Assembly (NCBI GenBank): GCA_030390025.1
Contig: CM059431.1
Span: 136,774,001-136,838,000, forward strand
DNA length: 64,000 nt
Reading direction: 5' to 3'
Source: Squalus acanthias
Lineage: Eukaryota
Shown here: one piece after another, positions 1 through 48,400 of the stretch
How positions within the stretch are numbered: the first letter of the stretch is position 1
Layout: every line of letters begins with the position of its first letter
Notes under the pieces: model-generated
The model's database searches: none
What the model saw: only the letters and a program-made list of their open reading frames with translations
Told to the model about the DNA's origin: nothing
Made by a program: the position numbers and the translations under genes

Positions 1-3000
1 CCCACTGACCCAGACAAACAACTATATCCCACTGACCCAGACCAACAAGGATATCCCACTGACCCAGAGCAACAACGATATCCCACTCACCCAGACCAAC
101 AACGATATCCCACTGACCCAAACCAACAACGATATCCACTGACCCAAACCAACAACGATATCCCACTGACCCAAACCAACAACGATATCCCACTGACCCA
201 GACCAACATCGATATCCCACTGACCCAAACCAACAATGATATCCACTGAGCCAAGACCAACAACGATATCCCACTGACCCAAACCAACAACGATATCCCA
301 CTGACCCAGACCAACAACGATATCCCACTGACCCAGACCAACAATGATATCCCACTGACCCAAACCAACAATGATATCCCACTGACCCAGACCAACAACG
401 ATATCCCACTGACCCAGAACAACAATGATATCCCACTGACCAAACCAACAACGATATCCCACTGACCCAAACCAACAACGATATCCCACTGACCCAAACC
501 AACAATGATATCCCACTGACCCAATCAACAACGATATCCCACTGACCCAAACCAACAACGATATCCCACTGACCCAAACCACAACGATATCCCACTGACC
601 CAGACCAACAACGATATCCCACTGACCCAAACCAACAACGATATCCCACTGACCCAGACCAACAATGATATCCCACTGACCCAAACCAACAACGATATTC
701 CACTGACCCAAACCAACATCGATATCCCACTGAACCAAACCAACAACGATATTCCACTGACCCAGACCAACAAGGATATCCCACTGACCCAAACCAACAA
801 CGATATCCCACTGACCCAAACCAACATCGATATCCCACTGACACAAATCAACAACGATATCCCACTGACCCAAACCAACAACGATATCCCACTGACCCAG
901 ACCAACAATGATATCACACTGACCCAAACCAGCAACGATATCCCACAGAGCCAGACCAACAATGATATCACACTGACCCAAACCAACAATGATATCCCAC
1001 TGACCCAGACCAACAACGATATCCCACTGACCCAGACCAACAATGATATCACACTGACCCAAACCAACAACGATATCCCACTGACCAGACCCACAACGAT
1101 ATCCCACTGACCCAGACCAACAATGATATCCCACTGACCGAAACCAACAACGATATCCCACTGAACCAAACCAACAATGATATCCCACTGACCCATACAA
1201 ACAACTATATCCCACTGACTCAGACCAACAAGGATATCCCACTGACCCAGAGCAACAACGATATCCCACTCACCCAGACCAACAAGGATATCCCACTGAC
1301 CCAAACCAACATCGATATCCCACTGACACAAATCAACAACGATATCCCACTGACCCAAACCAACAACGATATCCCACTGACCCAGACCAACAATGATATC
1401 ACACTGACCCAAACCAACAACGATATCCCACAGAGCCAGACCAACAATGATATCACACTGACCCAAACCAACAATGATATCCCACTGACCCAGACCAACA
1501 ACGATATCCCACTGACCGAGACCAACAATGCTATCACACTGACCCAAACCAACAACGATATCCCACTGACCAGACCCACAAAGATATCCCACTGACCCAG
1601 ACCAACAGTGATATCCCACTGACCCAAACCAACAACGATATCCCACTGACCCATACCAACAATGATATCCCACTGACCCAGACCAACAAGGATATCCCAC
1701 TGACCCAAACCAACAACGATATCCCACTGACACAAACCAACAACGATATCCCACTGACCCAAACCAACAACGATATCCACTGACCCAGACCAACAACGAT
1801 ATCCCACTGACCCAAACCAACATCGATATCCCACTGACCCAAACCAACAACGATATCCCACTGACCCAAACCAGCAACGATATCCCACTGACCCAAACCA
1901 ACAACGATATCCCACTGACCCAGACCAACAACTGATATCCCACTGACCCAAACCAACAACGATATCCCACTGACCCAGACCAACAATGATATCCCACTGA
2001 CCCAACCAACAATGATATCCCACTGACCCAAACCAACAACGATATCCCACTGACCCAAACCAACAATGATATCCACTGACCCAAACCAACAAGATATCCC
2101 CACTGACCCAAACCAACAACGATATCACACTGACCCAGAACAACAACGATATCCCACTGACCCAGACCAAAACGATATCCCACTGACCCAAACCAACAAC
2201 GATATCCCACTGACCCAGACCAACAATGATATCACAGTGACCCAGACCAACAACGATATATCTCTGACCCAGACCAACAAGGATATCCCACTGACCCAAA
2301 CCAACAATGATATCCAACTGACACAAACCAACAACGATATCACACTGACCCAAACCAACAATGAAATCCCACTGACCCAGACCAACAACTATATCCCACT
2401 GACCCAGAACAACAAGGATATCCCACTGACCCAAAGCAACAACGATATCCCACTGACCCAAACCAACAACGATATCCCACTGACCCAGAACAACAAGGAT
2501 ATCCCACTGACCCAAACCAACAACGATATCCCACTGACCCAGACCAACATCGATATCCCACTGACCCAAACCAACAACGATATCCCACTGACCCAGACCA
2601 ACAATGATATCCAACTGACCCAAACCAACAACGATATCCCACTGACCCAAACCAACATCGATATCCCACTGACCCAAACAAACAACGATATCCCACTGAC
2701 CCAAACCAACATCGATATCCCACTGACCCAAACCAACAACTATATCCCACTGACCCAAACCAGCAACGATATCCCACTGACCCAAACCAACAACGATATC
2801 CCACTGACCCAAGACCAACAACGATATCCCACTGACCCAAACCAACAACGATATCCCACTGACCCAGACCAACAATGATATCCCACTGACCCAAGCCAAC
2901 AATGATATCCCACTGACCCAAACCAACAACGATATCCCACTGACCCAAACCAACAACGATATCCCACTGTCCCAGACCAACACCGATATCCCACTGACCC

Positions 3001-6000
3001 AAACCAACATCGATATCCCCCTGACACGGAGCAACATCGATATCGCACTGACCCAAACCAGCAACGATATCCCACTGACCCAAACCAGCAACGATATCCC
3101 ACTGACCCAGACCAACAATGATGTCCCACTGACCCAAACCAACAATGATATCCCACTGACCCAGACCAACAACGATATCCCACTGACCCAGAACAACAAT
3201 GATATCCCACTGACCCAAACCAACAACGATATCGCACTGACCCAAACCAACAACGATATCCCACTTTCCCAAACCAACAATGATATCCCACTGACCCAAT
3301 ACAACAACGATATCACACTGACCCAGACCAACAATGATATCTCACTGACCCAAACAAACAACGATATCCCACTGACCCAGACCAACATCGATATCCCTCT
3401 GACCAAAACCAACAACGATATCCCACTGACCCAAACCAACAAGGATATCAAACTGACCCAAACCAGCAACGATATCCCACTGACCCAAACCAACATCGAT
3501 ATTCCACTGACCCAAACCAACATCGATATCCCACTGACCCAAACCAACATCGATATCCCACTGACCCAGACCAACAATGATATCCCACTGACCCAAACCA
3601 ACAATGATATCCCACTGACCCAAACCAACAACGATATCCTTCTGACACAAACCAGGAACGATATCCCACTGACCCAAACCAACAACGATATCACACTTAC
3701 CCAAACAAACAATGATATCCCACTGACACAAACCAACAACGATAACCCACTGACCCAAACCAACAACGATATCCCACTGTCCCAGACCAACACCGATATC
3801 CCACTGACCCAAACCAACAACGATATCCCACTGACCCAGACAAACAATGATATCACACTGACCCAGACCAACAACGATATCCCATTAACCCAGACCAACA
3901 ACGATATCACACTGACCCAAACCAACAACGATATCCCACTGACCCAGACCAACAATGATATCACACTGACCCAGACCAACAACGATATATCTCTGACCCA
4001 GACCAACAAGGATATCCCACTGACCCAAACCAACAATGATATCCAACTGACGCAAACCAACAACGATAGCCCACTGACCCAAACCAACAATGAAATCCCA
4101 CTGACCCAGACCAACAACTATATCCCACTGAACCAGAACAACAAGGATATCCCACTGACCCAAAGCAACAACGATATGCCACTGACCCAAACCAACAACG
4201 ATATCCCACTGACCCAGAACAACAAGGATATCCCACTGAACCAAACAAACAATGATATCCCACTGACCCAGACCAACAAGGATATCACACTGACCCAGAC
4301 CAACAGGGATATCCCACTGACCCAGACCAACAACGATATCACACTGACCCAAACCAACAATGATATCCCACTGACCCAGACCAACAACGATATCCCACTG
4401 ACACAGACCAACAATGATATCCCACTGACCCAAACCAACAACGATATCCCACTGACCCAAACCAACATCGATATCCCACTGACCCAAACAAACATCGATA
4501 TCCCACTGACCCAAACCAACATCGATATCCCACTGACCCAGACCAACAATGATATCCCACTGACCCAAACCAAGAATGATATCCGACTGACCCAAACCAA
4601 CAACGATATCACACAGACCCAAACAAACAACGATATTTCACTGACCCAAACCAACATCGATATGACACTGACCCAAACAAACAACGATATCCCACTGACA
4701 CAAACCAGCAACGATATCCCACTGATGCAAACCAACAACGATATCCCACTGACCCAGACAAACAATGATATCACATTGACCCAAACCAACAACGATATCC
4801 CATTGACACAGACCAAGAAGGATATCCCACTGACCCAGACCATCAAGGATATCCCACTGACCCAAACCAACAATGATATCACACTGACCCAAACCAACAA
4901 CGATATCACACTGAACCAAACCAACAAAGATATCCCACTGACGCAAACCAACAATGATTTCCCATGACCCAAACAACAACGATATCCCACTGACCCAGAT
5001 CAACAATGATATCCACTGACCCAAACCAACAACGATATACCACTGACCAAGACCAACATCGATATCCCGCTGACCCAAACCAACAACGATATCCCACTGA
5101 CCCAGACCAACAATGATATCCCACTGACCCAAACCAACATCGATATCCCACTGACGCAGACCAACAATGATATCCCACTGACCCAAACCAAGAATGATAT
5201 CCGACTGACACAAACCAACATCGATATCACACTGACCCAAACCAACAACGATATCCCACTGACCCAGACCAACAACGATATCCCTCTGACACAAACCAGC
5301 AACGATATCCCACTGACCGAAACCAACAACGATATCACACAGACCCAAACCAACAACGATATCCTTCTGACACAAACCAGGAACGATATCCCACTGACCC
5401 AAACCAACAACGATATCACACTTACCCAAACAAACAATGAAATCCCACTGACACAAACCAACAACGATAACCCACTGACCCAAACCAACAACGATATCCC
5501 ACTGTCCCAGACCGACACCGATATCCCACTGACCCAAACCAACAACGATATCCCACTGACCCAGAAAAACAATGATATCACACTGACCCAGACCAACAAC
5601 GATATCCCATTAACCCAGACCAACAACGATATCACACTGACCAAACCAACAACGATATCCCACTGACCCAGACCAACAATGATATCACACTGACCCAGAC
5701 CAACAACGATATATCTCTGACCCAGACCAACAAGGATATCCCACTGACCCAAACCAACAATGATATCCAACTGACGCAAATCAACAATGATATCCCACTG
5801 ACCCAAACCAACAATGATATCCCACTGACCCAGACCAACAACTATATCCCACTGAACTAGAACAACAAGGATATCCCACTGACCCAAAGCATCAACGATA
5901 TGCTACTGACCCAAACCAACAACGATATCCCAATGACCCAGAACAACAAGGATATCCCACTGAACCAAACCAACAATGATATCCCACTGACCCAGACCAA

Positions 6001-8845
6001 CAAGGATATCACACTGACCCAGACCAACAGGGATATCCCACTGACCCAGACCAACAACGATATCACACTGATCCAAACCAACAATGATATCCCACTGACC
6101 CAGACCAACAACGATATCCCACTGACACAGACCAACAATGATATCCCACTGACCCAAACCAACAACGATATCACACTGAACCAAACCAACAAAGATATCC
6201 CACTGACACAAACCAACAATGATTTCCCATGACACAAACAACAACGATATCCAACTGACCCAGATCAACAATGATATCCACTGACCCAAACCAACAACGA
6301 TATCCCACTGACCCAGACCAACATCGATATCCCACTGACCCAGACCAACAATGATATCAAACTGACCCAAACCAACAACGATATCCCACTGACCCAAACC
6401 AACATCGATATCCCACTGACCCAAACAAACATCGATATCCCACTGACCCAAACCAACATCGATATCCCACTGACCCAGACCAACAATGATATCCCACTGA
6501 CCCAAACCAAGAATGATATCCGACTGACACATACCAACAACGATATCACACTGACCCAAACCAACAACGATATCCCACTGACCCAGACCAACAACGATAT
6601 CCCTCTGACACAAACCAGCAACGATATCCCACTGACCCAAACCAACAACGATATCACACAGACCCAAACAAACAACGATATCCCACTGACACAAACCAGC
6701 AACGATATCCCACTGATGCAAACCAACAACGATATCCCACTGACCCAGACAAACAATGATATCACATTGACCCAAACCAACAACGATATCCCATTGACAC
6801 AGACCAACAACGATATCACACTGACCTAAACCAACAACGATATCCCACTGACCCAGACCAAGAAGGATATCCCACTGACCCAGACCATCAAGGATATCCC
6901 ACTGACCCAAACCAACAATGATATCCCAATGACGCAAACCAACAAAGATATCCCACTGACCCAAACCAACAATGATATCCCACTGACCCAGACCAACAAG
7001 GATATCCCACTGACCCAGACCAACAAGGATATCCCACTGACCCGAACCAACAAAGATATCCCACTGACCAAGACCAACAATATATCCCACTGAGCCAAAC
7101 CAACAATGATATCCCACTGATCAAGAGCAACAACGATATCCCACTGACCCAGAGCAACAAGGGTATCCCACTGACCCAGAGCAACAACGATATCCCACTG
7201 ACCCAAACCAAGAACGATATCCCACTGACCCAGAACAACAAGGATATCCCACTGACGCAAACCAACAATGATATCCCACTGACCAAGACCAACAAGGATA
7301 TCCCACTGACCCAGACCAACAAGGATATCCCACTGAGCCAGTTCAACAATTATATCCCACTGACCCAAACCAACAATGATATCCCACTGATCAAGACCAA
7401 CAACGATATCCCACTGACCCAGAGCAACAAGGATATCCCACTGACCGAGAGCAACAACGGTATCCCACTGACCCAAACCAACAACGATATCCCACTGACC
7501 CAGATCAACAAGGATATCCCACTGATCCAAAGCTACAATGATATCCCACTGACCCAGACCAAGAAGGATATCCCACTGACCCAGATCAACAAGGATATCC
7601 CACTGACCCAGACCAACAACTATATCCCACTGACCCAAACCAACAATGATATCCCACTGACACAGATCAACAATTATATCGCACTGGCAAAGGCCAGCAA
7701 CGATATCCCACTGACCCAGAGTAACAAAGATATCCCACTGACCCAAACGAACAAAGATATCGCACTGACCCAGACCAACATCGATATCCCACTGACTCAA
7801 ACCAACATCGATATCCCCCGACCCAGAAAAAACATCGATATCCCACTGAACCAAACCAACAACCATATCCCTCTGACCCAGACCAACAACGATATCCCTC
7901 TGACCCAAACCAGCAACGATATCCCACTGACCCAGAAGAACAAAGATATCCCACTGACCCAGACCAACAATGATATCCCACTGACCCAAATCAACAACGA
8001 TATCACACTGACCCAGACCAACAACGATATCACACTGACCCAGACCAACAACGATATCCCACTGACCCAGACAAACAACTATATCCCACTGACCCAAACG
8101 AACAATGAAATCCAACTGACCCAAACCAACAATGATATCCCACTGTCCCAAACCAACAACGATATCCCACTGACCCAAACCAACTACGATATCCAACTGA
8201 CCCAAACCAACAACGATATCGCACTAACCCAGACCAACAATGATATCCCACTGACCCAAACCAGCAACGATATCCCACTGACCCAGACCAACAATGATAT
8301 TGCACTTACCCAGACCAACAATGATATCCCACTGACCCAAACCAGCAACGATATCCCACTGACCCAGACCAACAATGATATCGCACTGACCCAAACGAAC
8401 AACGATATCTTCCTTCCAATCCAACAACGAAATCACACTGACCCAAACCAACAACGATATCCTACTGACCCAGATCAGCATCGATATCCCTCTGACCCAA
8501 ACCAACATCGATATCCCACTGACCCAAAGCAGCAACGAAATCCCACTGTACCAAACCAACATCGAGAGCCCACTGACCCCAACTAACAACGATATCCCAC
8601 TGTCCCAAACCAAAATTGATATCCCACTGACCCAAACCAACAACGATATCCCACTGACCCAAACCAACATTGATATCCCACTGACCCAAACCAACATTGA
8701 TATCCCACTGACCCAAACCAACAACGATATCCCACTGACCCAAACCAACAACGAAATCCCACTGACCCAAAACAACTTCGATATCCCACTGACCCAAACC
8801 AGCATTGATATCCCATTGACCCTGACCAAAACAATATCCCACTGA
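1..8845. repeat. 27-bp tandem satellite, consensus CCCACTGACCCAAACCAACAACGATAT (over 300 units; runs off the left edge)
   Basis: Unit read directly from the sequence; GATATC in almost every unit; rare variants recur about 1.73 kb apart (GATATATCTCTGACC at 2255, 3984, 5708). Confidence 0.97.
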
Positions 8846-8849
8846 CACT

Positions 8850-9671: not shown

Positions 9672-12418
9672 ACTGAGCAATCTGTGTGAAAGCTGTTGCC
9701 TGTCCTCAGGATTGCTTTCTAATAAAATATTCCTCAGTTGCTTCAGAACTTGGGAAGGCCTATCCAGTGAAATCGAATAGAAGGGATTAACAAATTGTTT
9801 CCACTAGAACAGTGAACAAAATTGTTTGTAAATTTTCTCGATCTCTTATCCCTGTTAGTGCAGTAAAACAGGCGAATGTATTTAATGTCCCGGGGCCCTG
9901 CTGTCTATTGATCATTTGAGCTAATTATTATATAAGGATTAGTAAATCGTTTCCACCTATCCGTGAGACAGGTGGTTTCAGCCCTGAAAGCGTTTTCCGT
10001 CGAACCTGTTTCTCTCTAAAGGGAGCGGGTCTCTCGGATTTTCTATTCAGCCAGTTTGATAATAATCGCTTCATTAACAGGATTTTATTCCCAGCAAATA
10101 CGGAAGTCACTGCTCCATTCTCCCGCTAATTCACATCCGCTCTGACTGAGTTAAACTGACATTTCTAGGTTATACAGCCTTTCATTATTATACTTAATCC
10201 CGGGTCAAGTTTTATCTCCGAAATTGCTCTGTTCTCTCCGGGCTCAGTTAACCAGAGGCTGATTTTCCCGGTGCTGGACATGAACGATAATCGGGAATGT
10301 GTTAACACTTCACTGAGTTGAACTATGTGTGTTCGGTCTTAAACTTCTAATCCCGCCTTTGATCAGTTCAATAGAAATGCACTGGGCAATAAATGTGCAG
10401 TGAGAGATATATTGTCCCAAAAATTAGTGAGTGAGCCTTCGTGCGAGGGTAAGGCTTCCCCGCGATCTCTCACTGCGCGCTGGCTTTTTTATTCCCAGCT
10501 CGCACGAACTTGATGTTCTGGACAGCAGCTCTGCAGTGCTTTCGTATCCCACAGGCGCAGTTATTTCGTGCGAGCTGTGGGATCACGTGACTCAGTTAGA
10601 GCCAATGGCAGCACACCATCTTTCATTCATAGCTTTCACAGCACGGCTGTGAAAGCTATGAATACTATACCCCCCAAAAGAACAGCTAAACCTCAATTAA
10701 ATTTAAAAAAAACAACACTTTAATAAAATAAGTATAGTTAAATAAAGTAACCACTTTAAACAAAAAATTAAATTTTTGAAAAAATTTAAAATCTTTTAAA
10801 AAGTTATAAAAATAAACTTTCCTTTCTTTAAAGTCTCCAAAAAAGATATACCTGTTGAAAAAAATTCAAAATAATACTTAATTAACTACTTACCTTGTTA
10901 AAAGAGGGTCTTACGCCTCCTTTCTTTATGTGCAAAATGTTCCATGCTTGCCTGCGCGTTCAAAGCACCTAGGAACCGCCCCCTTTTGAAATCACCAAGT
11001 GCCGGTTTTCAGCGCATGCGCAGTGCATGCAGAAAACCGGCAATTGGAGACAGAATACGCGAGAGTACACAGTGCGTACTCTCGCGTAGCGGCACTAATT
11101 TTTGGGCCAATAAAACATTCATACGGAGTTAGAGCGCCGCTGGTTTCCAGCCCTGTCTGTCTGAACTGTGAATTCGACAATAGGGAGGAGGCGCTAATGG
11201 ACAACAATGGGTTAAAGCCCCAGAGTTCGTGTTCCTGTTTTCTGTCCCGCAATCGCTTTTCAATGTGTCTGTAGGGAGACTGGGGGTGAGCAGGGGTACG
11301 ATTAGCCCTGAAATTGCCGGTGTAAAATGACAGCCCTCAGTTACAGTCTGAAACCAACTCACAGAATAGCTGCATCCCCGGCAATGGGGAACATATCAGA
11401 CCGCGGGTAATAAGCTTCAGAGAGGAAGAATAAATGGAGAAGTAAATTAATAAAATGCAGAAATGAATCTTATCATCTACATGAACCTTACCTTTACCCC
11501 TCATTGACTTTCTGTCTCTTTATTTCCGTGTAGATTATGCAAGTTATTAACTTGTTATTTCATTAAATCAATCAGGTTGAGGTTCCTTGTTTTAATTTAG
11601 CAGGTCACAAATTGGGAATTTCTGGTGAAAACAAATCGAACCGTTTGGCAGTTCGCTGCCGCGTTAAATGTAAACAAAGTTAGTTATACATTTTATTTCA
11701 TCTCTACTTGTTCAAGTAAAGTTCAGTAAAAGGACAAATGGTGAGAAATAAATTGTTGCATTTCCTTCTGGGGCATTGTTCACTGAAATTCCCATCATAT
11801 TTCCTGGTGTTTTGGCTTTGAGCCCAGCGTCCAAGAGCCAGTGACTTGTCAGTCAGCTGAAGGAGAGGCTGTTTGTGTACATGAGCGAATTAGCCTTTTA
11901 ACCGCCGAAGTAAACTATCCCTGAGCATCAATACAAACGCAATATACTGAAGATACTGGAAATCTGAAATAAAAACAGAAAATACTGGAGGTACTCAGCA
12001 GGTCAGGCAGCCTCTGTGGAGCGAGAAACAGCGTTAACGTTGCAGGTCGATGACCTTTCGTCAGAGCTGGCAAAACTTGGCGTTGTAACAGGTACCGAGC
12101 AGGCACAGAGGCTGGGGAAGGGGCGGGGAGGAAAGAACAAAGGAGAAGGACTGTGACATGTAGAAGGCAGCAGTGAAACAATGACTAAACGGATGATGAC
12201 GATGCAAAACCAAAAGGGGCTGGTAATGGGCCAAGAAAAGAAACAAAAGATGGGCCTGAGCAAATATAAATGAAAATCAGATTCATTACCAACAGCTGCT
12301 GTGCGGAAAATGGGAGCAGTGGTCATGATCTGAAATTGTTGAACTTTATGTTGAGTCCGAAGGGCTGTAAAGTGCCTAATCGGAAGATGAGGTGCTGTTC
12401 CTCGAGCTTAAATTGAGA
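9672..12418 (-). repeat. Left arm of an inverted segmental duplication (partner 20965-23129)
   Basis: actgagcaatctgtgtgaaagctgttgcctgtcctcagg (9672) is the reverse complement of cctgaggataggcagcagctttcacatagattgctcagt (ends 23129). Collinear matches continue to ctcgagcttaaattgaga (12418) vs tctcaatggaagctcg (20965). Confidence 0.92.
10412..11110. mobile_element. Non-autonomous DNA transposon / MITE, copy 1 (~700 bp; possibly PIF/Harbinger-related, superfamily not established)
   Basis: 18-bp TIRs ttgtcccaaaaattagtg / cactaatttttgggccaa (1 mismatch). The element is absent from the paralogous right arm (empty site near 22350-22365). Related copy at 47602-48360. Confidence 0.88.
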
Positions 12419-18309: not shown

Positions 18310-20640
18310 ACTGACCATCCAAAACATAATAATGACCTGGGGACTGACACCACCCAAGCAGAATTATTTCCTGGGCACTGACTGCTCGCAAACACAATCA
18401 ATAACTGTGTATTTACACCTATGATACGCAATAATTACCTGGGAACTGAACCCTCACAAACAGAATCATTATCTGGGCACTGACCCTTCACACCAGAATC
18501 ATTACCAGGGAACTGGTATCTCCCAAACAGAATCATTAACTGGGCACTGAATCCTCCTGGACAGAATCATTACCTGGGCACTGACCCCTCACAAACTGCA
18601 TCGTTACATGGGCACTGTCTCCTCCCAAATAGAATCATTACCTGGGCACTGACCACTCACAAACGGAATCATTAACTGGGCACGCAATTTTCCCAAACAG
18701 AATCATTACCCGGGCACTGACTCATCCCAAACAGATTTATTACCTGGGCACTGACCCCTCCCATACAGAATCATTAACTGGGCACTGACGACTCCCAAAC
18801 AGAATCATTAACTGGGCACTGACCCCTCTCAAACAGAATCATTACCTGGGCACTGACCCATCCCAAACAGAATCATTACCTGGGCACTGACCCCTCCCAT
18901 ACAGAATCATTAACTGGGCACTGACCCATCCCAAACAGAATCATTACCTAGGCACTAACTCCTCACAAACAGAATCATTACCTGGGCCCTAGATTTCCCA
19001 AACAGAATCATTACCTGGGCACTGACCTCTCAAGAACAGAATCATTGCCTGGGCACTGACCCCTCCCAAACATAAGCATTTCCTGGGCACTGACTCTTCC
19101 CAAATATAATCTTTAACTGGGCACTGACAATCCCAAACAGAATCATTTCCTGGGCACTGACCCCTCTCAAACAGAATCATTACCTGGGCACTGACCCCTC
19201 TCAAAGAGAATCATTACCTCGGCACTGACCCTTTCCAAATAGAATCATTACCTAGGCACTGATTCGTCCTAAATAGAATCACTACCTGCACTGAACCATC
19301 GAAACAGAATCATTACCAAGCAGAATGGTTACCTGGGCTCTAACACCTCTCGAACAGAATCACGACATGGGCACTGGCAGCCCCAAAACAGAGTCATTAA
19401 TTGGACACTGACCCCTCCCAAACTAAAGCATTACATGGTCACTGACCAGTCACAAACTGCAACATTACCTGGGCACTGATCCATCCCAAACCGAATAATT
19501 ATATGGGAACTGACGCCTGAAAAACAGTATTATTATGTGGGGACTGACCACACCCAAACAGAATCATTACCTGGGCACTGACCCCATCCAAGCAGAATCA
19601 TTATTTTGGCACTGACCTCTTAAAAACAGAATCATTGACAGGTCATTGACACCTCCCAAACAGAAGCATTACCTGGGTAGTGATCACTCCCACACAGAAT
19701 CATTATCTGGGCACTGAACCCTCCCAAACAGAATCATTACCTGGGCACTGACCACTCCCAAACAGAATCATTATCTGGGCACTGACCCCTCCCACACAGA
19801 ATCATTACCTGGGCACTGACCACTCCCACAGAGAATCATTACCTGGGCACTGACCCCACCCAAATAGAATCATTGCCTGGGCACTGAGCCCTCCCACACA
19901 TAATCATTACCTGGGCACTGACCACTCGCAAACGGAATCATTACGTGGGAACTGACTCATCCCAAGCATATTTTTTACCTGGGCACTGACCTCTCCAAAA
20001 CAGGATCATTATCTTGGCACTGACCTGACAAAAATATAATTGCCAGCGCATTGACCCATTCAAAACAGAATAATTACCTGGGCACTGACTCTTTCCAAAC
20101 AGAATCATTATCTGGGCACTGACTCTTCCCAAACAGAATCATTACCTGTGCACAGACACTCCCAAACAGAATCATGACCTGGGCACTGAACCATCACAAA
20201 CAGAATCATTAACTCGCCACTGGCCCCTCCCAAACAGAATCACTACCTGTCACTGAACAATTCGAAACAGAATCATTAACTGGACACTGACATCTCCCAA
20301 ACTGAAGCATTACATGAGTGCTGACAAGTCACAAGCTGCATCATTACCTGGGCACTGACCACTCCCAAACAGAATCATTACCTGGGCACTGTCTCCTCCA
20401 AACAGAATCATTACCTGGGAACTGACCCCTCCAAAATAGAATCATTACCTGGGCACTGAACCATCACAAATAGAATCATTACCTCGGCACTGACCCCTCC
20501 CAAACAGAATCACTACCTGGCACTGAACAATCCGAAACAGAATCATTACCTGGCCACTGACCCCTCCACAACAGAACCATTACCTGGGCACTGACGCCTC
20601 CCAAATAGAATCATTACCTGGGCACTGACCCCACCACAAC
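18310..20640. repeat. 34-bp tandem satellite, consensus CAGAATCATTACCTGGGCACTGACCCCTCCCAAA (about 68 units)
   Basis: Period 34 read directly (cagaatc at 18800, 18834, 18868). Confidence 0.95.
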
Positions 20641-20644
20641 CGAA

Positions 20645-21432
20645 CCCCTCCACTTCCATGTTTCCTTCCCTGCAAGTGCAGGAGATGCTACAACTTCCGT
20701 TTTACCTCATCCCTTCCCACCATCCAGGGCCCCAAACACTCCTTCAAGGTGAAAAAGCCATTTACATGTACATCGTTAAATTTAGTATACTTTGTTCGTC
20801 GCTCCTCTACATTGAGAAGACCAAACTCATATTGTGTGATCGCTTTGCGGTACAACTCCGTTCAGTATTCAAGCTTGACCCTAAGCTTCCAGTCGCTTGT
20901 CTTTTTCATTTTCCACTCCCACGCTGACCTCTCTGTCATCGGCCCCCTACACGGTTCCAATTAATCTCAATGGAAGCTCGATGAACAGCAACTCATCTTT
21001 CGATTAGGCACTTTCCAGTCTTCCGGACTCAACAATGAGTTCAACAATTTCAGATCATGACACTGCTCCCATTTTTCGGACAGCAGCTGTTGGTATTGAC
21101 TCTGATTTAATCATTTACATTTGCTCAGGTCCAATTGTTTTTCTTTTCTTTGCACATTTCCAAATCCTTTTGGTTTTGCACCATCATCCATTTAGTCATT
21201 ATTTCACTCCTGCCTTCCACACTATCACAGACTTTTATCCTTTCCTCCCCGCCCCTTCCCCAGGATCTGTGCCTGCTCGGTACCTGTTACATCGCTAACT
21301 TTTGCCAGCTCTGACCTGCAACATTAACGCTGTTACTCTCTCCACAGAAGCTGCCTGACCTGCTGAGTGCCTCCAGCATTTTCTGTTTTTATTTCAGATT
21401 TCCAGTATGTTCAGTAAATTGTGTTGGTATTG
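20645..21432 (+). mobile_element. Penelope-like element 3' fragment (GIY-YIG endonuclease remnant plus pLTR)
   Basis: Peptides FPCKCRRC, QGPKHSFKVKKPFTCTSLNLVY, LYIEKTK and KLDEQQLIFRLGTFQSSGLN across frameshifts. The hammerhead stem II is deleted at about 21311. Confidence 0.85.
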
Positions 21433-23129
21433 CTGCTCAGGGATAGTTCAATTCGGCGGTTAAATGGTTAATTCCCTCATGCACACAAACAGCCTCTCCC
21501 TCAGCTGACTGACAAGACACTGGCTCTTGGACCCTGGGCTCAAAGCCAAAACACCAGGACATAGGATGGGAAATTCAGTGAACAATGTTCCAGATGGAAA
21601 TGTAAAACATTATTTCTCACCATTTGTCCTTTTACTGAACGGACCTAGAACAAGTGGAGATGAAATCAAATGTATAACTAACTTTGTTTACATTTAAAGC
21701 GGCAGTGAATTGCCAATTGATTTCACCAGAAAGTCCGGTCCCTGCTATGAGCAACTGAGAGATGTTTGCGCTCAAATTCTCAGTGAAGGCAGCAACTTTA
21801 CACAGAGGGTGCAGCTCTGAATCTCACAGTACAAACATCTGATCAAATTCCCAAGTTATGACTTCCTCAATTTAAACAAGGAAACTCAACCTGATTGGAT
21901 TTAACGCTGTAACAAGTAAATAACTTGCATAATCTACACGGAAATAAAGAGACAGAACGTCGTTGCGGGATCATGGTAAGGTTAATGTCGCTGCTAAGAT
22001 TAATTTCTGTGTTTTATTAATGTATTTCTCCCTTTATTCTTCCTCTCTAAATCTTATTTCCAGCGGTCTGATATGTTCCCCAGCGTGGGTTGCGGCTATT
22101 CTGTGTGTGAGGGCTCAGACTGTGACTGAGGACAGTCCATCTTACAGCGGGGATTTCGGGGCTAAATCCACTCCTGGTCTCCACCAGTCTCCCCACAGAC
22201 ATAGTTTAAAGCGTTTGCGGGACAGAAAGCAGAAACACGAATTCTGGGGATTTACCCCATTTTGGTCCAGTGGCGCCTCCACCCTATTGTAGATTCACAG
22301 TTCAGACAGACAGGGCTGGAAACCTGTGGCGCTCTAACTCCGGATGAATATTTTATTATATCTCTCACTGCAGCTTTATTGGCCAGTGCATTTCTATTGA
22401 ACTGTTCAAAGGCGGTATTAGTAGTTAATAACGAACACACATAGTTCAATTCAGTAAAGAGCGAACACATTCGCACTGCCCGATTATCGTTCACGGTTCA
22501 GCACCGGGAAAATCAGCCTCTGTGTTCCCTGAGACCGGACTGAACGCGATATAATCCCAGGAACGGAGCACTTTCGGAGATACAACTTGACCCGTGTTTA
22601 ATTATAATAATTAAATGCTGTATAACCGAGAAATGTCAGTTTAACTCAGTCAGGAGCGGATGTGAATTAGGGGGAGAATGGAGCAGGGACTTCCGTATTT
22701 CCTGGAAAAATAAGTACCTGTTTAATGAGGCGATTATTATCAAACTGGCTGAACAGAAAATCCGAGAGACTCGCTCCCTTTAGAGAGAAACAGATTGGAC
22801 GCAAAACGCTTTCAGGGCTGAAACCACCTGTCTCACAGATCGCTGGAAACGAATTACTAATCCTTACATAATAATCAGCTCAAATTATCAACAGGCAGCA
22901 GGGCCCCGGGACTTTAAATACATTCGCCTGTTTTACATCACTGACTGGGAACAAGAGATGCAGAAAATATTTAAATAACTTTGTTCACTGTTGAAGTGTC
23001 AACGAATTTTTAAACCGCTTCTATTGGATTTCAAAGGAAAAGCCTCCACAAGTTCTGATGCAACTGAGGAATATTTTATTTGAAATCCATCCTGAGGATA
23101 GGCAGCAGCTTTCACATAGATTGCTCAGT
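20965..23129 (+). repeat. Right arm of the inverted segmental duplication (partner 9672-12418)
   Basis: Collinear reverse complement of the left arm. It lacks the MITE and carries about 115 bp (21735-21845) missing from the left arm. Confidence 0.92.
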
Positions 23130-26100
23130 CGGGCGTGGGGATTATCAGTGGGGTGTGGGGCAGTGTCAGTGGGGTGTGGGGCAGTGTCAGTGGGGTGTGG
23201 GTGTGGGGCTGGGTCAGTGGTGTGTGGGTGTGGGGCTGGGTCAGTGGGATGTGGGGCTGGGTCAGTGGGTTTTGGGGCTGGGTCAGTGGGGTGTGGGGCT
23301 GGGTCAATGGTGTGTGGTGCTGTGTCAGTGGGGTGAGGGGCTGGGTCAGTGGGGTGTGCGGCTGAAAAGTGGGTGTGGGGCTGGGTTAGTGGAGTGTGGG
23401 GCTGGGTTAGTGGGGTGTGGGGCTGGGTTAGTGGTGTGTGGGTGTGGCGCTGGGTCAGTGATTTGTAAGTGTGGGACTGGGTCAGTGATGTGTGGGGATG
23501 GGTCAGTGCGGTGTGGGTGTGGGGCTGGGTCAGTGGAGTGTGGGTGTGTGTCTGGGTCAGTGGGATGTGGGGCTAGGTAAGTGGGGTTTGGGTGTGGGAC
23601 TGGGTCAGTGGGGTTTGGGTCTGGAGCTCGGTCAGTGGGGTGTGTGGCTGGGTCAGTGGGGTGTCGTGTGGGGCTGGTTCAGTGGGGTGTGTGTGTGGTT
23701 CTGGGTCAGTAGCGTGAGGGTGTGCGGCTGGGTCAGTGGGGTGTTGGTGTGGGGCTGGGTCAGTGGTGTGTGGATGTGGGGCTGGGTCAGTGGGGTGTGG
23801 ATGTGAGGCTGTGTCAGTGGGGTGTTGGTGTGGGGCTGCGTCAGTGGGGTGTCAGTGTGGGGCTGGGTCAGTGGTTTTTGGTTTGGGGCTGGGTCGGTGG
23901 GGTGTGCTTGTGGGGCTGGGTTAGTGGGCTTTGCTTTGGGAGAGCGTCAGTTGGGTGTGGGTGTTGGGCTGGGTCAGTGGGGTGTGGGTGTGGGGCTGGG
24001 TCAGTGGGGTGTGGGTGTTGGGCTGGGTCAGTGGGTTGTGGGTGTGGTGCTGAGTCCGTGGGGTTTGGGTGTGGCGCTGAGTCAGTGGGGTTTGGGTGTC
24101 GGGCTGGGTCAGTGGGGTTTGGGTGTGGGGCTGTGTCAGTGGGGTGTGTGTGTGGGGCTGAGTCAGTGGGGTTTGGGTGTGGGGCTGGGTCAGTGGGGTT
24201 TGGGTATGGGGCTGGGTCAGTGGGATGTGGGTGTGGGGCTGTGTCAGTGGGGTGTGGGGCTGGGTCAGTGGGGTGTGACTATGAGGCTGGGTCAGTGGGT
24301 TTTGATTGTGGGGCTGGGGCAGTGGTGTGTTTGTGTTGGGCTGGGTCAGTGGGGTTTGGATGTGGGGCTGTTTCAGTGGGGTGTCGGTGTAGGACTGGGT
24401 CAGTGGGTTGTAAGTGTTTGGCTGGGTCAGTGGGGTGTTGGTTTGGGTCTGGGTCAGTGATTTGTGGGTGTGGGGCTGGGTCATTGGGGTGTGGGTGTGG
24501 GGCTGGGTCAGCGGGGTGTGGGATTGGGTCTGGTCATGAGGCGTGGGTGTGGGGCTGGGTCAGTGAGGTGTGGGTGTGGGGCTGGGTCAGTGGGGTGTGG
24601 GTGTGGGGCTGGGTCAGTGTAGTGTGGGTGTGGGGCTTGGTCAGTGAGGTGTGGGTGTGCGGCTGGGTCAGTGGGGTGTGGATGTTGGGCTGGGTCAGTG
24701 GGGTGTGGGTGTGGGGCTGGGTCAGTGGGGTGTGGGCGTGTGGGCTGGGTCTGTGGGGTGTGGGTGTGGGGCTGAGTCCGTGGGGTTTGGGTGTGGCGCT
24801 GTGTCAGTGGGGTTTGGGTGTCGGGCTGGGTCAGTGGGGTTTGGGTGTGGGGCTGTGTCAGTGGGGTGTGGGTGTGGGGCTGAGTCAGTGGGGTTTTGGT
24901 GTTTGGCTGGGTGAGTGAGGTGTGGGTGTTTGGCTGGGTCAGTGAGGTGTGGGTTTGCGGCTGGGTCAGTGGGGTGTGGGTGTTGGGGTGGGTCAGTGGG
25001 GTGTGGGTGTGGGGTGGGTCAGTGTGGTGTGGGTGTTGGGCTGGGTCAGTGGGGTGTGGGTGTGGGGCTGAGTCCGTGGGGTTTGGGTGTTGCGCTGGGT
25101 CAGTGGAGTTAGAGTGTAGGGCTGGGTCAGTGTGGTTTGGGTGTGGGGCTGTGTCAGTGGGGTTTGGGTGAGGGGCTGAGTCAGTGGGGGTGGGTGTGGG
25201 GCTGGGTCAGTGGGGTGTGGGGCTGGGTCAGTGGGGTGTGACTATGAGGCTGGTCAGTGAGGTGTGGTTGTGGGGCTTTGTCAGTGGTGTGTCTGTGTGG
25301 GGCTGGGTCAGTGGGGTTTGGATGTGGGGCTGGGTCAGTGGGGTGTCGGTGTAGGACTGGGTCAGTGGGTTGTAAGTGTATGGCTGGGTCAGTGGGGTGT
25401 TGGTTTGGGTCTGGGTCAGTGATTTGTGGGTGTGGTTCTGGGTCATTGGGGTGTGGGTGTGGGGCTGGGTCAGTTGGGTGTTGATGTGGGTCTAGTTCAG
25501 TGGTGTGTGTGTGTGTGGCTCGGTCATGGGGTGTGGGTGTAGGGCTGGGTCAATGGGGTGTAGATGTGAGGCTGTGTCAGTGGGGTGTGGGTGTGGGGCT
25601 GCGTCAGTGTGTTGTCAGTGTGGGGCTGGGTCAGTGGTTTTTGGTTTGGGGCTGGGTCAGTGGGGTGTGTTTGTGTGGGTGGGTTAGTGGGTTTTGGTTT
25701 GGGGGAGCGTCAGTGGGGTGTGGGTGTGGGCCTGAGTCAGTGGGGTTTGGGTGTGTGGCTGGGTCAGTGGGATTTGGGTGTGGAGCTGGGTCAGTGGGGT
25801 GTGGGGTTGTGTCAGTAGGGTTTGGGGCTGGGTCAGTGGGGTGTGACTATGAGGCTGGGTCAGTGGGGTGTGGTTGTGGGCCTGGGTCAGTGGTGTGTTT
25901 GTGTGGGTCTTGGTCAGTGGGGTTTGGATGTGGGGCTGGGTCAGTGGGGTGTCGGTGTAGGACTGGGTCAGTGGGTTGTAAGTGTGTGGCTGGGTCAGTG
26001 ATTTGTGGGTGTGGGTCTGGGTCATTGGGGTGTGGGTGTGGGGCTTGGTCAGTGGGGTGTGGGATTGGGTCTGGGTCAGTGATTTGTGGGTGTGGGGATG

Positions 26101-29100
26101 GGTCATTGGGGTGTGGGTGTGGGGCTGGGTCAGTGGGGTGTGGGATTGTGTCTGGGTCAGTGGGGTTTGTGTGTGGAGCTCGGTCAGTGGGGTGTGGGTG
26201 TGGGGCTGGTTCAGTGGAGCTTGTGTGTGGGGCTGGGTCATGGGGTGTGGGGCTGGGTCAATGGGGTTTGGGTGTGGGGCTGGGTCAGTGGAGTGTGGGT
26301 GTGGGGCTGGGTCAGTGGGGTGTGGGTGTGGGGCTGGCTCAGTGGGGTGTGGGTGTGGGGCTGGGTCAATGGGGTGTAAGTGTGGCTCTGGGTCAGTGGG
26401 GTGTGGGGCTGGTTCAGTGGGGTGTGGGTGTGGGGCTGTGTCAGTAGAGTGTGGGTGTGTGGCTGGGCCAGTGGTGTGAGGGTGTGGGTCTGGGTCAGTG
26501 GGATGTGGGTGTGGGGCTGCGTCAGTGGGGTGTCAGTGTGGGGCTGGGTCAGTGGGGTTTGGGTGTGAGTCTGGGTCAGTGGAGTGTGGGTGTGGGACTG
26601 GGTCAGTGGGCTATCGGTGTGGGGCTGCGTCAGTGCGGTGTCAGTGTGGGGCTGGGTCAGTGGTTTTTGGTTTGGGCTGGGTCAGTGGGGTGTGTTTGTG
26701 GGGTTGGGTAAGTGGCGTGTGGGTGTGCGGCTGGGTCAGTGGGGTGTGGGTGTGGGGCTGGGTCTGTGGGGTGTGGATGTGGGGCTGGGTCAGTGGGGTG
26801 TGGATGTGAGGCTGTGTCAGTGGGGTGTGGGTGTGGGGCTGGGTTAGTAGGTTTTGGTTTGGGGCTTGGTAAGTTGTGTGTGGGTGTGTGGCTGGTTCAG
26901 TGGTATTTGGGTGTGGGGCTGTATCAGTTTTGTGTGGGTATGAGGCTGGGTCAGTGGGGTGTGGGTGTGGGCCTGGGTCATTGGGGTGTGGGGCAGGGTC
27001 AGTGGGATGTGGGTGTGGGCCTGGGTCAGTGGGTTTTGGGGCTGGGTCAGTGGGGTGTGGGGCTGGGTCAATGGTGTGTGGTGCTGTGTCAGTGGGGTGA
27101 GGGGCTGGGTCAGTGGGGTGTGGGTGTGGGCCTGGGTCATTGGGGTGTGGGGCAGGGTCAGTGGGGTGTGGGTGTGGGCCTGGGTCAGTGGGTTTTGGGG
27201 CTGGGTCAGTGGGGTGTGGGGCTGGGTCAATGGTGTGTGGTGCTGTGTCAGTGGGGTGAGGGGCTGGGTCAGTGGGGTGTGCGGCTGAAAAGTGGGTGTG
27301 GGGCTGGGTTAGTGGGGTGTGGGGCTGGGTTAGTGGGGTGTGGGGCTGGGTTAGTGGTGTGTGGGTGTGGCGCTGGGTCAGTGATTTGTAAGTGTGGGAC
27401 TGGGTCAGTGATGTGTGGGGATGGGTCAGTGCGGTGTGGGTGTGGGGCTGGGTCAGTGGAGTGTGGGTGTGTGTCTGGGTCAGTGGGATGTGGGGCTGGG
27501 TAAGTGGGGTTTGGGTGTGGGACTGGGTCAGTGGGGTTTGGGTCTGGAGCTCGGTCAGTGGGGTGTGTGGCTGGGTCAGTGGGGTGTCGTGTGGGGCTGG
27601 TTCAGTGGGGTGTGTGTGTGGTTCTGGGTCAGTAGCGTGAGGGTGTGCGGCTGGGTCAGTGGGGTGTTGGTGTGGGGCTGGGTCAGTGGTGTGTGGATGT
27701 GGGGCTGGGTCAGTGGGGTGTGGATGTGAGGCTGTGTCAGTGGGGTGTGGGTGTGGGGCTGCGTCAGTGGGGTGTCAGTGTGGGGCTGGGTCAGTGGTTT
27801 TTGGTTTGGGGCTGGGTCAGTGGGGTGTGCTTGTGGGGCTGGGTTAGTGGGCTTTGCTTTGGGAGAGCGTCAGTTGGGTGTGGGTGTTGGGCTGGGTCAG
27901 TGGGGTGTGGGTGTGGGGCTGGGTCAGTGGGGTGTGGGTGTTGGGCTGGGTCAGTGGGTTGTGGGTGTGGTGCTGAGTCCGTGGGGTTTGGGTGTGGCGC
28001 TGAGTCAGTGGGGTTTGGGTGTCGGGCTGGGTCAGTGGGGTTTGGGTGTGGGGCTGTGTCAGTGGGGTGTGTGTGTGGGGCTGAGTCAGTGGGGTTTGGG
28101 TGTGGGGCTGGGTCAGTGGGGTTTGGGTGTGGGGCTGGGTCAGTGGGATGTGGGTGTGGGGCTGTGTCAGTGGGGTGTGGGGCTGGGTCAGTGGGGTGTG
28201 ACTATGAGGCTGGGTCAGTGGGTTTTGATTGTGGGGCTGGGGCAGTGGTGTGTTTGTGTTGGGCTGGGTCAGTGGGGTTTGGATGTGGGGCTGTTTCAGT
28301 GGGGTGTCGGTGTAGGACTGGGTCAGTGGGTTGTAAGTGTTTGGCTGGGTCAGTGGGGTGTTGGTTTGGGTCTGGGTCAGTGATTTGTGGGTGTGGGGCT
28401 GGGTCATTGGGGTGTGGGTGTGGGGCTGGGTCAGCGGGGTGTGGGATTGGGTCTGGTCATGAGGCGTGGGTGTGGGGCTGGGTCAGTGAGGTGTGGGTGT
28501 GGGGCTGGGTCAGTGGGGTGTGGGTGTGGGGCTGGGTCAGTGTAGTGTGTGTGTGGGGCTTGGTCAGTGAGGTGTGGGTGTGCGGCTGGGTCAGTGGGGT
28601 GTGGATGTTGGGCTGGGTCAGTGGGGTGTGGGTGTGGGGCTGGGTCAGTGGGGTGTGGGCGTATGGGCTGGGTCTGTGGGGTGTGGGTGTGGGGCTGAGT
28701 CCGTGGGGTTTGGGTGTGGCGCTGTGTCAGTGGGGTTTGGGTGTCGGGCTGGGTCAGTGGGGTGTGGGTGTGGGGCTGAGTCAGTGGGGTTTTGGTGTTT
28801 GGCTGGGTGAGTGAGGTGTGGGTGTTTGGCTGGGTCAGTGAGGTGTGGGTTTGCGGCTGGGTCAGTGGGGTGTGGGTGTTGGGGTGGGTCAGTGGGGTGT
28901 GGGTGTGGGGTGGGTCAGTGTGGTGTGGGTGTTGGGCTGGGTCAGTGGGGTGTGGGTGTGGGGCTGAGTCCGTGGGGTTTGGGTGTTGCGCTGGGTCAGT
29001 GGAGTTAGAGTGTAGGGCTGGGTCAGTGTGGTTTGGGTGTGGGGCTGTGTCAGTGGGGTTTGGGTGAGGGGCTGAGTCAGTGGGGGTGGGTGTAGTGCTG

Positions 29101-39513: not shown

Positions 39514-39910
39514 CCTTAGGTAAGGAGAACAAACTGTACTTAATACTCCAGGTGTGGTCTCATCAGGGCCCTATATAATTCCAGTGAGACGTCCTTACTC
39601 TTAGACACAAATCCTTTTGTAATAAAGGCCAACATGCCATTTGCTTTCCTAATTCCTTGCTGTACCTGCATGTTAACTTTTAGTGATTCTTGTACAAGGA
39701 CACCCAGGTCCCTCTGAACACCAACATTTCCCAATCTCTCACCATTAAAAAAATACTCTGGTTTTATATTTTTCCGACGAAAGTGGATAACTTCATATTT
39801 CTCCACATTATATTCCATGTGTCTTTCACTTGCCCACTAAATTAGCCTGTCTATATCCCCTTGAAGCCTCCATGCAACTTCCTCACAACTTACATTCCCA
39901 CCCAGCTCAG
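39512..39910 (-). mobile_element. CR1 ORF2 fragment (host element, right part)
   Basis: Peptide VQRDLGVLVQESLKVNMQVQQGIRKANGMLAFI...RPHLEY. Confidence 0.85.
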
Positions 39911-45489: not shown

Positions 45490-48400
45490 AGTGCTTCTAA
45501 TCAGAGTGTTAAATTTGGGAATTTGGAGAGTTTGGGAATTCGGAACAGAGGGGGAAGGAGGTGTTGATTGTTGCCTCCAATACTTGGAGAGCTTTATGTT
45601 ACAGGTAAATATTTAATTTAATCTACATAGAACTTAAACTAGATCTAGCAATTAGCTAAAACAAAACTATAAGCTAAGTTAATTAAAGGCATAAAATTTA
45701 GTTCACTATATAAATAAAAAAAGGTTATAAAGTGAGGGCAGTGCAGGTGGAGTGCCGCAACTGCAGCTTGTGGGAGTTAGTGGAGAGCATTGTGATCCCG
45801 GACAACCACGTTTGCGGTAAGTGCCTGCAACTTGAGGAACTTCAGCTCAGAGTTGTTGAGCAGGAGTCTGAGGTGCAGACATTGCGGGACATCCGGTAAG
45901 GGGTGTGTTATATGGACAATTTGATCCAGGAGGCAGTCGCACCTCTTAGGTTAGGTAGTGGTACAGGTCTGGTTAGTGGTCATGGCCGGGAGTGTATGAC
46001 TGCAATGCAGGCAGTTAAGAGGACTCCAGGTGCAGTGCTGGAGAGCCTCAGCCTTTGCCCTTGTTCAACATGTATGAGGTTCTAACTGCCTTTGTGGATG
46101 AGGGCAAAGTCTGCAGGGTGGATGAACAAACTGACCACGGCACCATGATACAGGAAGCCATTCAAGTGGGGGGAGTGAAAACGAATGTTGCAGTGTTAGG
46201 GGACAGTATAGTCAGGAGGATTGCTTCTGCGCTTTGTAGCCGAGACAGCGATTTCCGAAAGCTTTGTTGCCTGGGTTAAGGATATCTCCTCGCGGCTGGA
46301 GAAGAATCTTGAGTGGGAGTGGGAGGATACAGTATACATGATCCAAGTAGGAAGCAGGGACATAGGTAGAACTAGGAATGAGGTTCTGCTGAATGAGTTT
46401 GAGGAGCAGATTTGGAAAATAAATTACGCAGCTGCGCAAGAACTATAGCCTAGTGATAATGAGAGACTTTAACTAAACCAGTATTAAATGGGGCAGTGAT
46501 TGTGTTAAGAGCACGGAACGGGAGGAATTCTGAAGTGTGTGCAGGAGAATTTTATTGATCAGTATGTTTCCTGCCCAATGAAACATGAAGCATTGCTGGA
46601 TGTAATCCTGGGAAATTAATTTTATCAAGTGGAGAATGTTACAGTTGGAGTGAATCTCACGAAGAGTGATAATTATATCATAAGTTGTAGATTCGTTATG
46701 GAGAAGGACAAGGTACAATCTAGAATTGAAATAAACCTTAACTGCGTAAGGGCTAGTCTCATCGAATTGAGGAGGGATCTGTCCAGTTAAATTGGTGTCT
46801 AACATTGGCAGGCAGAAAAGTAATGGATCAATGGGCGGCCTTTAAAGAGGAGATGGTTCGGGAACAGTCTAGATACAATCCTGCAAGGGGGAAAGGAAGG
46901 ACAACCAAAGCAAGAGTTCACTGGATGACGAAGGTGTTGGAGAGTAGTATGGAGCAGAAAAAGGGGGCGTATGACAGATGTCAGCTTGATAATACAATGG
47001 AGATTCAGGCTGAATATAAAAAGGAGAATTGAAAAAGGATATAAGTGGAGCAAAGAGACAGTACAAGAATAGAATGGCGGCTAACATAAAAGTGAATCCA
47101 AAGGTCATCTTTAGGCATATTAACAGTAAAATGGTTGTCAGAGGAACGGTGGGTCCGATTAGAGACCAAAATGGAGAACTATCGGTGGAGGCAGAAGGCA
47201 TGGCTGAGATAATAAATTAATACTTTGCATCGGTTTTTATCAAGGAAGAGAACTTTAACAAAGATATGGTAAACGAGGAGGCTGCTGGAACACTGGATGA
47301 GATACAAACAGATAAAGATGCGGTACTAGAAAGGCTGGCGGTACTTAGAGTGGATAAGTCACCCGGTCTGGCTGGGATGCATCCTAGTGTGCTGAGGGAA
47401 GTAAGGATAGGAATTGCGCAGGTGCTCGCCACAATCTTCCAATCCTTCTTAGAGACGGGGTGCTGCCAAAACGGACTGCACGATTGTAAATCTTACATCA
47501 TTGTACAAAAAAGGCGAGAAAAATAAACCTGACAATTACAGGCCAGTCAGTTTAACGTCGATGGCGGGGAAGCTTTTAGAAACAATAATCCGGGAGAATT
47601 CGGCCCAGAAATTCGCGTGTCCGGCTTGCCGCGGGGGTAAGGATCGCGCGCTCTTACCTACTGCGCCTGCCGTTGTGTTTTGGGCCCACGGGAACTTCGG
47701 GTCCTAAGCCTCTCCCAACTGCCGGCGCACAGTGCTTGCGTGTTCCAGGGGCGCAGTTAGTGCGATGCGACCCCCGGGATCAGGTGGGCCATGGAGAGCC
47801 AATGGCAGCAGTCCATCTTTCATTCATATATTTGACAGGAGACCTGTCAAATTTGTGAATTGAAATCGGCCCAAACAGAACAGCTAAACTTAAAATAAAT
47901 TTTAAAAAAACATCACATTTATAAAATAACTATAGTTAAATAAATTAACCACTTTAAACAAAAATTTAAATATTTGAAAAAATTAAAATACTTTTTAAAA
48001 GTTATAAAAATAAACTTACCTTTCTTTAAAGTATCTAAAAAAATAAAGCTGTTGAAATTTTTTTTAAATTATACTTAATTAACCACTTACCTTGTTCAAA
48101 AGTGGTCTTACGCCTTCTTTTTATTAGCGTAGTATCTTCAATACCTACCCTCGCGTAGAAACCTGAAAAATAATCTAAGTGTGCTGCGTGCGCGCAGCCT
48201 CTAGCGCACAAGCGGTTCACCTAGAAACCGCCCCCTTCACCATACCGGAAGTACCGGTTTCCCGCGCATGCGCAGTGCATGTAGGAAACCGGCACTTCGG
48301 GAAGCAATACGGGTGAGTACGCACTGTGTACTGACGCGGGAAGGGCCGAATTTTTGAGCCATTAGTAGCTACTTAGACAAGCATGGATTAATAAAAGAGA

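Follow-up and report, generated by a model that had tools for sequence, protein, structure and literature searches.

Element copies, ends and target site

The window (the whole 64-kb stretch of DNA that was analysed) contains two copies of a MITE in the same orientation, and its remainder consists of long tandem arrays and LINE fragments. The copies represent two subfamilies of an element 695-760 bp in size with 12-bp TIRs (Table 1). They are 81% alike over 392 nt and 75% alike over 147 nt, and no third copy of the family was found in the 64-kb window. Pairing in the 12-bp TIR core, which is the same in both subfamilies, is 11/12 in copy 1 and 10/12 in copy 2. The element is non-coding: stop-free frames of at least 75 aa over copy 1 gave no Pfam match, copy 2 has no frame of at least 120 aa, and none of the 59 frames scanned in the window matched a transposase family. 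A TIR-like string at 11304 was rejected as part of a further element, as the paralogous segment has the string too and the partner end is lacking.

Table 1. Positions in the window of the two MITE copies, their internal parts and the target sites
Feature	Positions	Strand	Remarks
MITE copy 1	10414..11108	+	695 bp, young; empty site in window; 698-nt skip in runs X5 and X11
MITE copy 2	47602..48360	+	759 bp, other subfamily, more decayed; inside LINE reverse-transcriptase region
Left TIR, copy 1	10414..10425	+	12-bp core; pairing extends to 10429
Right TIR, copy 1	11097..11108	-	GGCCCAAAAATT read on minus strand
Left target-site copy	10411..10413	+	ATT, one mismatch to empty-site AAT
Right target-site copy	11109..11111	+	AAT
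Empty target	22355..22357	-	AAT, inverted paralogous segment
Stem D, copy 1	10546..10583		9-bp outer arms and 4-bp inner stem; 2 compensated pairs
E-box-like and CCAAT-like block	10583..10622	+	16 nt identical in both copies
Stem A, copy 1	10625..10663		18/18 pairs; 3 compensated; centre variable among copies
AT-rich core	10680..10923		most conserved part; minus-strand splice-donor-like motifs (10895)
Stem B, copy 1	10992..11050		17/19 pairs around invariant 18-nt centre; 2 compensated pairs within 10995-11047
Stem C, copy 1	11056..11088		13 perfect pairs; 1 compensated
Stem D, copy 2	47742..47779		approximate ends
Stem A, copy 2	47822..47860		16/18
55-nt segment without counterpart in copy 1	48162..48216		palindromic, approximate ends; other family members have it
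Stem B, copy 2	48244..48302		16/19
Stem C, copy 2	48308..48340		11/16 Watson-Crick; inverted centre 48321-48327

Words of copy 1 were present in 20 public runs from 9 studies; 18 of these, drawn from five organisms and two runs without an organism label, carried 29-59% of the words. Four of the 20 runs were compared in detail, as contigs only. The summed contig depth of the element relative to the flank was about 9,000, 31,000 and 43,000 in three of them, values that are not a copy number, and the flank itself is duplicated; the fourth had no cover of the flank and hence gave no ratio. The family is clearly very abundant. Exact-pattern scans found 0 copies in viral contigs and 0 in metagenome contigs, and the one match in prokaryote genomes (L001) shared only 24-32 nt and was attributed to chance. 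Copy 1 is a young insertion; at least eight of the 37 variant rows listed are private to it, and none of those listed falls in stems A-D. The element being short, non-coding, bounded by TIRs and high in copy number, its identification as a MITE in the sequence-only reading holds. The limits given there for copy 2 were also right, and those of copy 1 (10412-11110) had to be moved to 10414-11108.

Copy 1 lies in an inverted segmental duplication (9703-12418 and 20965-23098, about 84% alike), each half of which adjoins a 21/27-bp tandem array and which provides an empty site. The paralogue (about 20965-23098) lacks the element and reads GATAT-AAT-AAAA, where the filled site reads GATAT-ATT-element-AAT-AAAA. 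One contig each in runs X5 and X11 skips 698 nt at the copy-1 site, which equals the 695-bp element plus a 3-bp duplication (AAT/ATT, one substitution). It had been supposed that the two copies do not resolve the TSD; for copy 1 the empty paralogous site resolves it. Copy 2 is flanked by ATT on the right (48361-48363) and by ATTC on the left, and with this extra C the 3-bp duplication fits the right side only. Two contigs of other loci likewise reach A after the TIR. A 2-bp TSD with T..A ends suits both filled sites, which leaves only a doubt: it needs a 1-bp indel relative to the empty site of the window and the two runs, and the number of ad hoc events is then equal. The flanking motif A-N-N-Y/R-N-N-T matched one of four flanks. 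As a side observation, the one mismatch between the TSD copies (10411-10413 and 11109-11111) makes them reverse complements and lengthens the TIR outward to 19/20; this could be chance or TIR-to-TIR copying after insertion.

The TIRs of both copies begin with GG (GGCCC ends), and the PHIS hallmark, a G/GG start with a short target duplication, is present. The element is likely a PHIS (Harbinger-like) cut-and-paste MITE, the basis for this being one empty site with one mismatch. An autonomous partner in this superfamily would be expected to have the same TIRs and to encode an IS5-like DDE transposase together with a second ORF. Kolobok, whose target duplication is TTAA, was rejected, as neither site has TTAA. 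Helentron/HINE and Crypton elements make no TSD, and their inverted repeats are subterminal or absent; they too were rejected, as the TIRs are terminal and the 3-bp duplication accounts for the skip. For the same two reasons the HUH and tyrosine-recombinase enzymes, which had been named beside DDE as candidates for the autonomous partner, fit poorly. A single-stranded or recombinase intermediate (HUH/Helentron-like or Crypton-like) with the hairpins as recognition signals would agree with one hairpin lying 20 nt from the element's right end, with the irregular left junction of copy 2, and with the possibility of drawing the 698-nt insertion without a TSD (10412-11109). Drawn without a TSD, however, the ends become asymmetric and unlike between the copies, whereas the skip is accounted for by 695 nt of element and a duplicated 3-bp target, with inverted repeats that are exactly terminal in both copies and begin with GG. 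Such an intermediate is the most improbable of the explanations weighed here.

In the PHIS survey of Han et al., an ANT target with GG ends belongs to Pangu, TWA to PIF/Harbinger, AATT to ISL2EU, and CWG and CTNAG to Nuwa (PMC4482050); Pangu is the Harbinger2 of Repbase (PMC12730594). PIF/Harbinger in the strict sense was rejected for the absence of a TWA target (copy 1 has AAT/ATT and copy 2 has ATT on the right), and NuwaI and NuwaII for the absence of CWG or C|TNA|G. ISL2EU, which has an AATT target and the arrangement AAT-element-ATT, was rejected as well: the empty site of copy 1 is without AATT and its flanks are ATT and AAT, and at copy 2 AATT is present yet two extra bases would be required. 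The Pangu group has a 3-bp ANT/AWT target duplication, which copy 1 would fit with one substitution, and a short TIR (11-40 bp) beginning with GG, as the present element does (PMC4482050). A Pangu/Harbinger2-type placement thus has thin evidence in its favour, namely two sites, copy 2 contributing its right side only, in a comparison that includes no transposase. The group is defined by transposase phylogeny, whereas the present element is placed by its ends and target alone; the 15 host genomes of the group include no vertebrate, and internal palindromes go unmentioned in the available text of the survey (PMC4482050). TIR starts of the form GGCCC or GGCCT occur 0 times in three of its supplements, which give few TIR sequences as text. 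If the placement is true, the ANT target extends Pangu/Harbinger2 to vertebrates relative to the 2015 survey. In elephant shark no Harbinger was found, and examination of other cartilaginous fish has been urged (PMC9179366); to judge from its types of repeat, the present host is probably one of these.

Paired stems and their covariation

Hairpins A and B lie where the sequence-only reading had located them (Table 1). The arms of B surround an identical 18-nt centre, and the part quoted in that reading includes one compensated pair, the second lying just outside. The stems number four, as C and D covary besides A and B. Stems were defined from copy 1 alone and their fate was read in copy 2; the comparison rests on these two full copies and comprises the 57 Watson-Crick pairs of stems A-D. 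Two candidates were left out of this count because they were not kept: stem E (10474-10504), in which 3/10 pairs are unchanged and 1 is compensated in copy 2, and a palindrome of the AT core (10768-10789), with 0 compensations in 10 pairs.

From copy 1 to copy 2, 38 of the 57 pairs stay the same and 8 show compensation; 10 have lost their pairing through a change on one side, and 1 through changes on both. The 8 compensated pairs (A 3, B 2, C 1, D 2) compare with a mean of 2.0 under permutation of partners (P = 1.5e-5); stems A and B alone have 5/33, with P between 2e-4 and 6e-3 if sites are taken as independent. The covariation between arms is real, and the claim that the arms were altered together is borne out beyond chance. 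To describe the hairpins as conserved by compensation rather than by sequence was an overstatement, with 38/57 pairs identical and 8 compensated; 31 of the 118 stem letters differ, i.e. about 74% are identical. Of the covariation claimed for the TIRs there remains a single compensated pair among 16 examined, and copy 2 no longer pairs at the next-but-one positions. Row counts of G>A and A>G variants are compatible with compensation at 10655, 10570 and 11033 and are not decisive, the rows for the partner positions 11009, 10633 and 10558 falling outside those listed.

Folded as DNA, the two copies gave z-scores of -12.7 and -7.6, and 5 of the 6 short-loop hairpins scoring at least 12 in 31,476 unmasked bases belong to these two elements. 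Both strands fold strongly, and the preferred strand is not consistent between the copies.

Motifs that we take to be E-box, CCAAT, GC-box, NRF1-like and splice-donor-like are predicted to point inward from both ends of the element. The block at 10583-10622, presumably an E-box and a CCAAT motif, appears promoter-like, and the invariant centre of stem B contains what we assume to be an NRF1-like palindrome. The AT-rich core with the promoter-like and splice-donor-like motifs probably represents remnants of the gene leaders of a two-gene parent.

Between the copies the AT-rich core differs at 13.6% and unpaired GC-rich sites at 34%, which puts the subfamily-level divergence of the latter at about 21% (34% minus the 13.6% of the core). 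Compensated turnover in the stems is 14% (95% CI 6-26%) against this value of about 21%. Uncompensated letters in the stems of copy 2 amount to 12/114, compared with 25-28/243 in the core after removal of the differences traceable to copy 1 or to subfamily variants (Fisher P 0.86-1.0). Among the loose ends listed, which are separate contigs and do not establish linkage between arms, the main ones of stem B in run X5, left (40 records) and right (30 records), are complementary at 8/8 positions and unlike both window copies; in run X18 the right arm of stem A, in a single record, matches the left arm of copy 2 at 17/18. The simplest reading of these data is that the stems were paired in the subfamily founders, or transposing lineage, and that once inserted they decay as fast as the background. 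Since this is what copy 2 shows, repair acting passively on resident copies is too slow to maintain the stems.

Two further observations concern stem A: its centre (10641-10647) shows several substitutions and insertions among copies, one variant being listed for the 16-bp outer stem, and a motif that lies about 40 bp downstream recurs in one loose end.

Probable re-matching of the arms by template switching

The 7-nt centre of stem C in copy 1 (11069-11075) is the exact reverse complement of the corresponding letters of copy 2 (48321-48327). The chance of such an inversion arising by point changes is 3e-5 to 2e-4, computed after the fact and for a single event. Loose-end consensuses of runs X5 and X6, in which only some records span those letters, continue from a copy-2-type left arm into the copy-1 orientation. 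Because these ends combine the two, both orientations of the centre exist in the copy-2-type lineage.

Six of the 8 compensations are by transversion, four being C-G to G-C, for which there is no G-U wobble route. The 2/8 of transition type agree with the background transition share of 36% (P = 0.41 for two or fewer of 8) and are fewer than an assumed 65% through G-U (P = 0.025). Given 6/8 compensations by transversion without a G-U route, an inverted centre in stem C and folding of either strand, template switching in DNA fits better than stepwise selection on RNA. Compensated turnover also lies near the divergence of unpaired sites, which would be faster than two-step compensation under strong selection permits. 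Of the three explanations that had been offered in the sequence-only reading, arm-to-arm homogenisation thus gains from the centre inversion, the transversions and the rate of turnover, and selection on RNA structure receives little support.

That the stems are RNA structures, selected in transcripts of the parent or of the MITE through stepwise compensatory substitution, would be in keeping with their predicted folding, which is strong in 8/8 segments (z -4.1 to -10.2), and with six runs, guessed to be RNA, in which the element is present at shares of 0.33-0.41. Two RNA runs with small shares (0.07 and 0.04) were discarded as evidence for it. Against this reading, only 2/8 compensations could have taken the G-U route, both strands fold with no consistent preference, no Rfam family matched at the gathering score (0 matches), and a cut-and-paste element is not copied through RNA. 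Moreover, transcription probably does not extend through stems B, C and D, since none of them is located inward of the promoter-like motifs. Taken together, these observations make RNA selection very improbable.

Template switching is recognised by multiple compensations, extended stems and inverted loops (PMC8794818, PMC5453318), and the hairpins ascribed to it in rRNA and the human genome share these features, inverted centres included, with the present stems (PMC8794818, PMC5453318). The published cases are RNA genes and single loci, the word 'transposable' occurring 0 times in the available text of PMC8794818, whereas the sieve here would be transposition among many copies. It has also been pointed out that template switching may maintain apparent structures without selection (PMC5453318).

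Transposition as a possible sieve, related systems and the remaining window

The explanation that we favour, tentatively, is that the palindromes are re-matched in one step by template switching and are kept since re-matched copies go on transposing. The transposase and a partner DNA-binding protein of an unseen autonomous parent would act in trans. Once one arm has acquired a point mutation, brief use of the opposite arm as template by the polymerase would later either transfer the change to the second arm or remove it. This would happen at the fork or while an excision gap is being refilled by homology-directed repair, and some of these events would invert the centre. Homology-directed repair can replicate mPing (PMC10288884). 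Out of tens of thousands of copies, the next subfamily would be founded by those whose DNA has stayed symmetric, while residents decay. What counts in the stems would be their shape as DNA (hairpin or cruciform, bending, nucleosome placement), and their letters would not be read.

It is possible, and somewhat less probable in our view, that the stems have no function and are re-matched as a by-product of amplification: refilling of the excision gap by strand-annealing repair would expose pairing single strands, and the exposed arms would be copied or mismatch-repaired, so that often-transposing lineages stay symmetric. The same template-switch signatures apply to this case, apparent structures can be maintained without selection (PMC5453318), and replication of mPing by homology-directed repair lends it a precedent (PMC10288884). 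For four stems to hold against about 21% unpaired divergence, however, a large fraction of transposition cycles would have to include re-matching, and passive repair is visibly slow in copy 2. A sieve on internal sequence is also suggested by the conservation of the core and by the invariant blocks, for which exchange between subfamilies is an alternative. The transposition sieve is preferred because four stems have outlasted about 21% divergence, because conservation is strong in the core and in two motif blocks as well, and because internal regions of mPing regulate its mobility in a manner that its authors judged not to be sequence-specific (PMC9921582). Against the sieve, core conservation could stem from exchange between subfamilies; copy 1 itself tolerates two mismatches in the outer part of stem B, and copy 2 retains no more than 11/16 pairs in stem C. 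Selection may or may not act on pairing at the DNA level in the copies that transpose.

In another view the palindromes are two-fold sites to which host factors or the Myb/SANT-type protein of the parent bind, subfamilies having co-evolved with a changed partner specificity. The CCAAT block and the centre of stem B, which is invariant, resemble sites that are read as sequence. Harbinger3_DR has a CWG target and short, repeated, sequence-specific palindromes, and Sinzelle et al. are said to have described in 2008 its 9-bp palindromic subterminal sites. The present element differs from it in having four unrelated stems of 9-19 bp with arms altered in mirror image. Myb-like protein does bind terminal or subterminal transposon sequence (PMC2836001, PMC13668399), and such proteins evolve rapidly from one family to another. 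However, no arm sequence is common to the four stems, arms of 13-19 bp exceed the 6-8 bases that such domains usually read, free positions of a site have no reason to change in mirror image, and the TIR core is identical across both subfamilies. Site symmetry is a better explanation for the constancy of the stem-B centre and for the CCAAT block than for the mirrored arm changes; sequence-specific palindromic binding sites, as the sequence-only reading had proposed, receive little support and appear improbable.

Returning to the transposition sieve, it had been assumed that TIRs are all a cut-and-paste MITE needs. In this superfamily the assumption is wrong, as internal regions of mPing promote or inhibit its transposition (PMC9921582). 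mPing of rice, a Tourist-like PIF/Harbinger element, is likewise small, non-coding and TIR-bounded, has a 3-bp TSD and is mobilised in trans (PMC9921582, PMC2836001, PMC10288884); its internal regions also influence mobility, and copies are also gained by homology-directed repair (PMC9921582, PMC10288884). It differs in its TAA/TTA target and in that covarying internal stems are undescribed, 'secondary structure' occurring 0 times in the available text of PMC9921582. Zebrafish Harbinger3_DR and Harbinger3N_DR provide the vertebrate counterpart, a two-protein Harbinger with short TIRs and non-autonomous derivatives (cited in PMC2836001, PMC9179366). In its most specific form, our proposal is that a vertebrate Pangu/Harbinger2-type family needs several internal hairpins or cruciforms, read as shape, for its mobilisation, variants being supplied by template switching and selected by transposition, so that RNA-like covariation would arise in a cut-and-paste DNA element without any part played by RNA; this we regard as conceivable and doubtful.

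Elements of this class are already known, as are cis-effects of internal sequence and template switching. No report of covarying internal MITE stems or of the present family was found in the paper listings and abstracts covered; a consensus of the family may be deposited in Repbase, Dfam or supplements. Covariation is usually taken as proof of a functional RNA stem, and a DNA transposon with the marks of template switching is a warning case. As the family has several subfamilies and about 10^4 copies that can be dated, the rates at which stems are compensated, invert their centres and decay could be estimated separately for transposing and for resident lineages, which rRNA cannot offer. If the stems are necessary for mobilisation, a structural cis-requirement is added to cut-and-paste transposition, and this may help explain why some MITEs outrun their parents.

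Elsewhere in the window, the tandem arrays at 1-8846, 18310-20632, 23172-35056 and 50187-58671 have units of 27, 34, 27 and 23 bp, respectively; the two 27-bp arrays are related and opposite in orientation, and the second carries long stop-free frames. LINE reverse-transcriptase fragments at 38308-43608 form nested inverted and direct duplications that are 76-88% alike. A perfect palindrome at 44062-44382, with 149-bp arms (149/149) and a 23-nt loop, is very recent or an assembly effect and resembles what we take to be a Penelope-type fold-back insertion. A Galactosyltransferase (PF01762) fragment at 59461-59739 (E 7e-22), amid LINE debris, is probably a gene piece or pseudogene.
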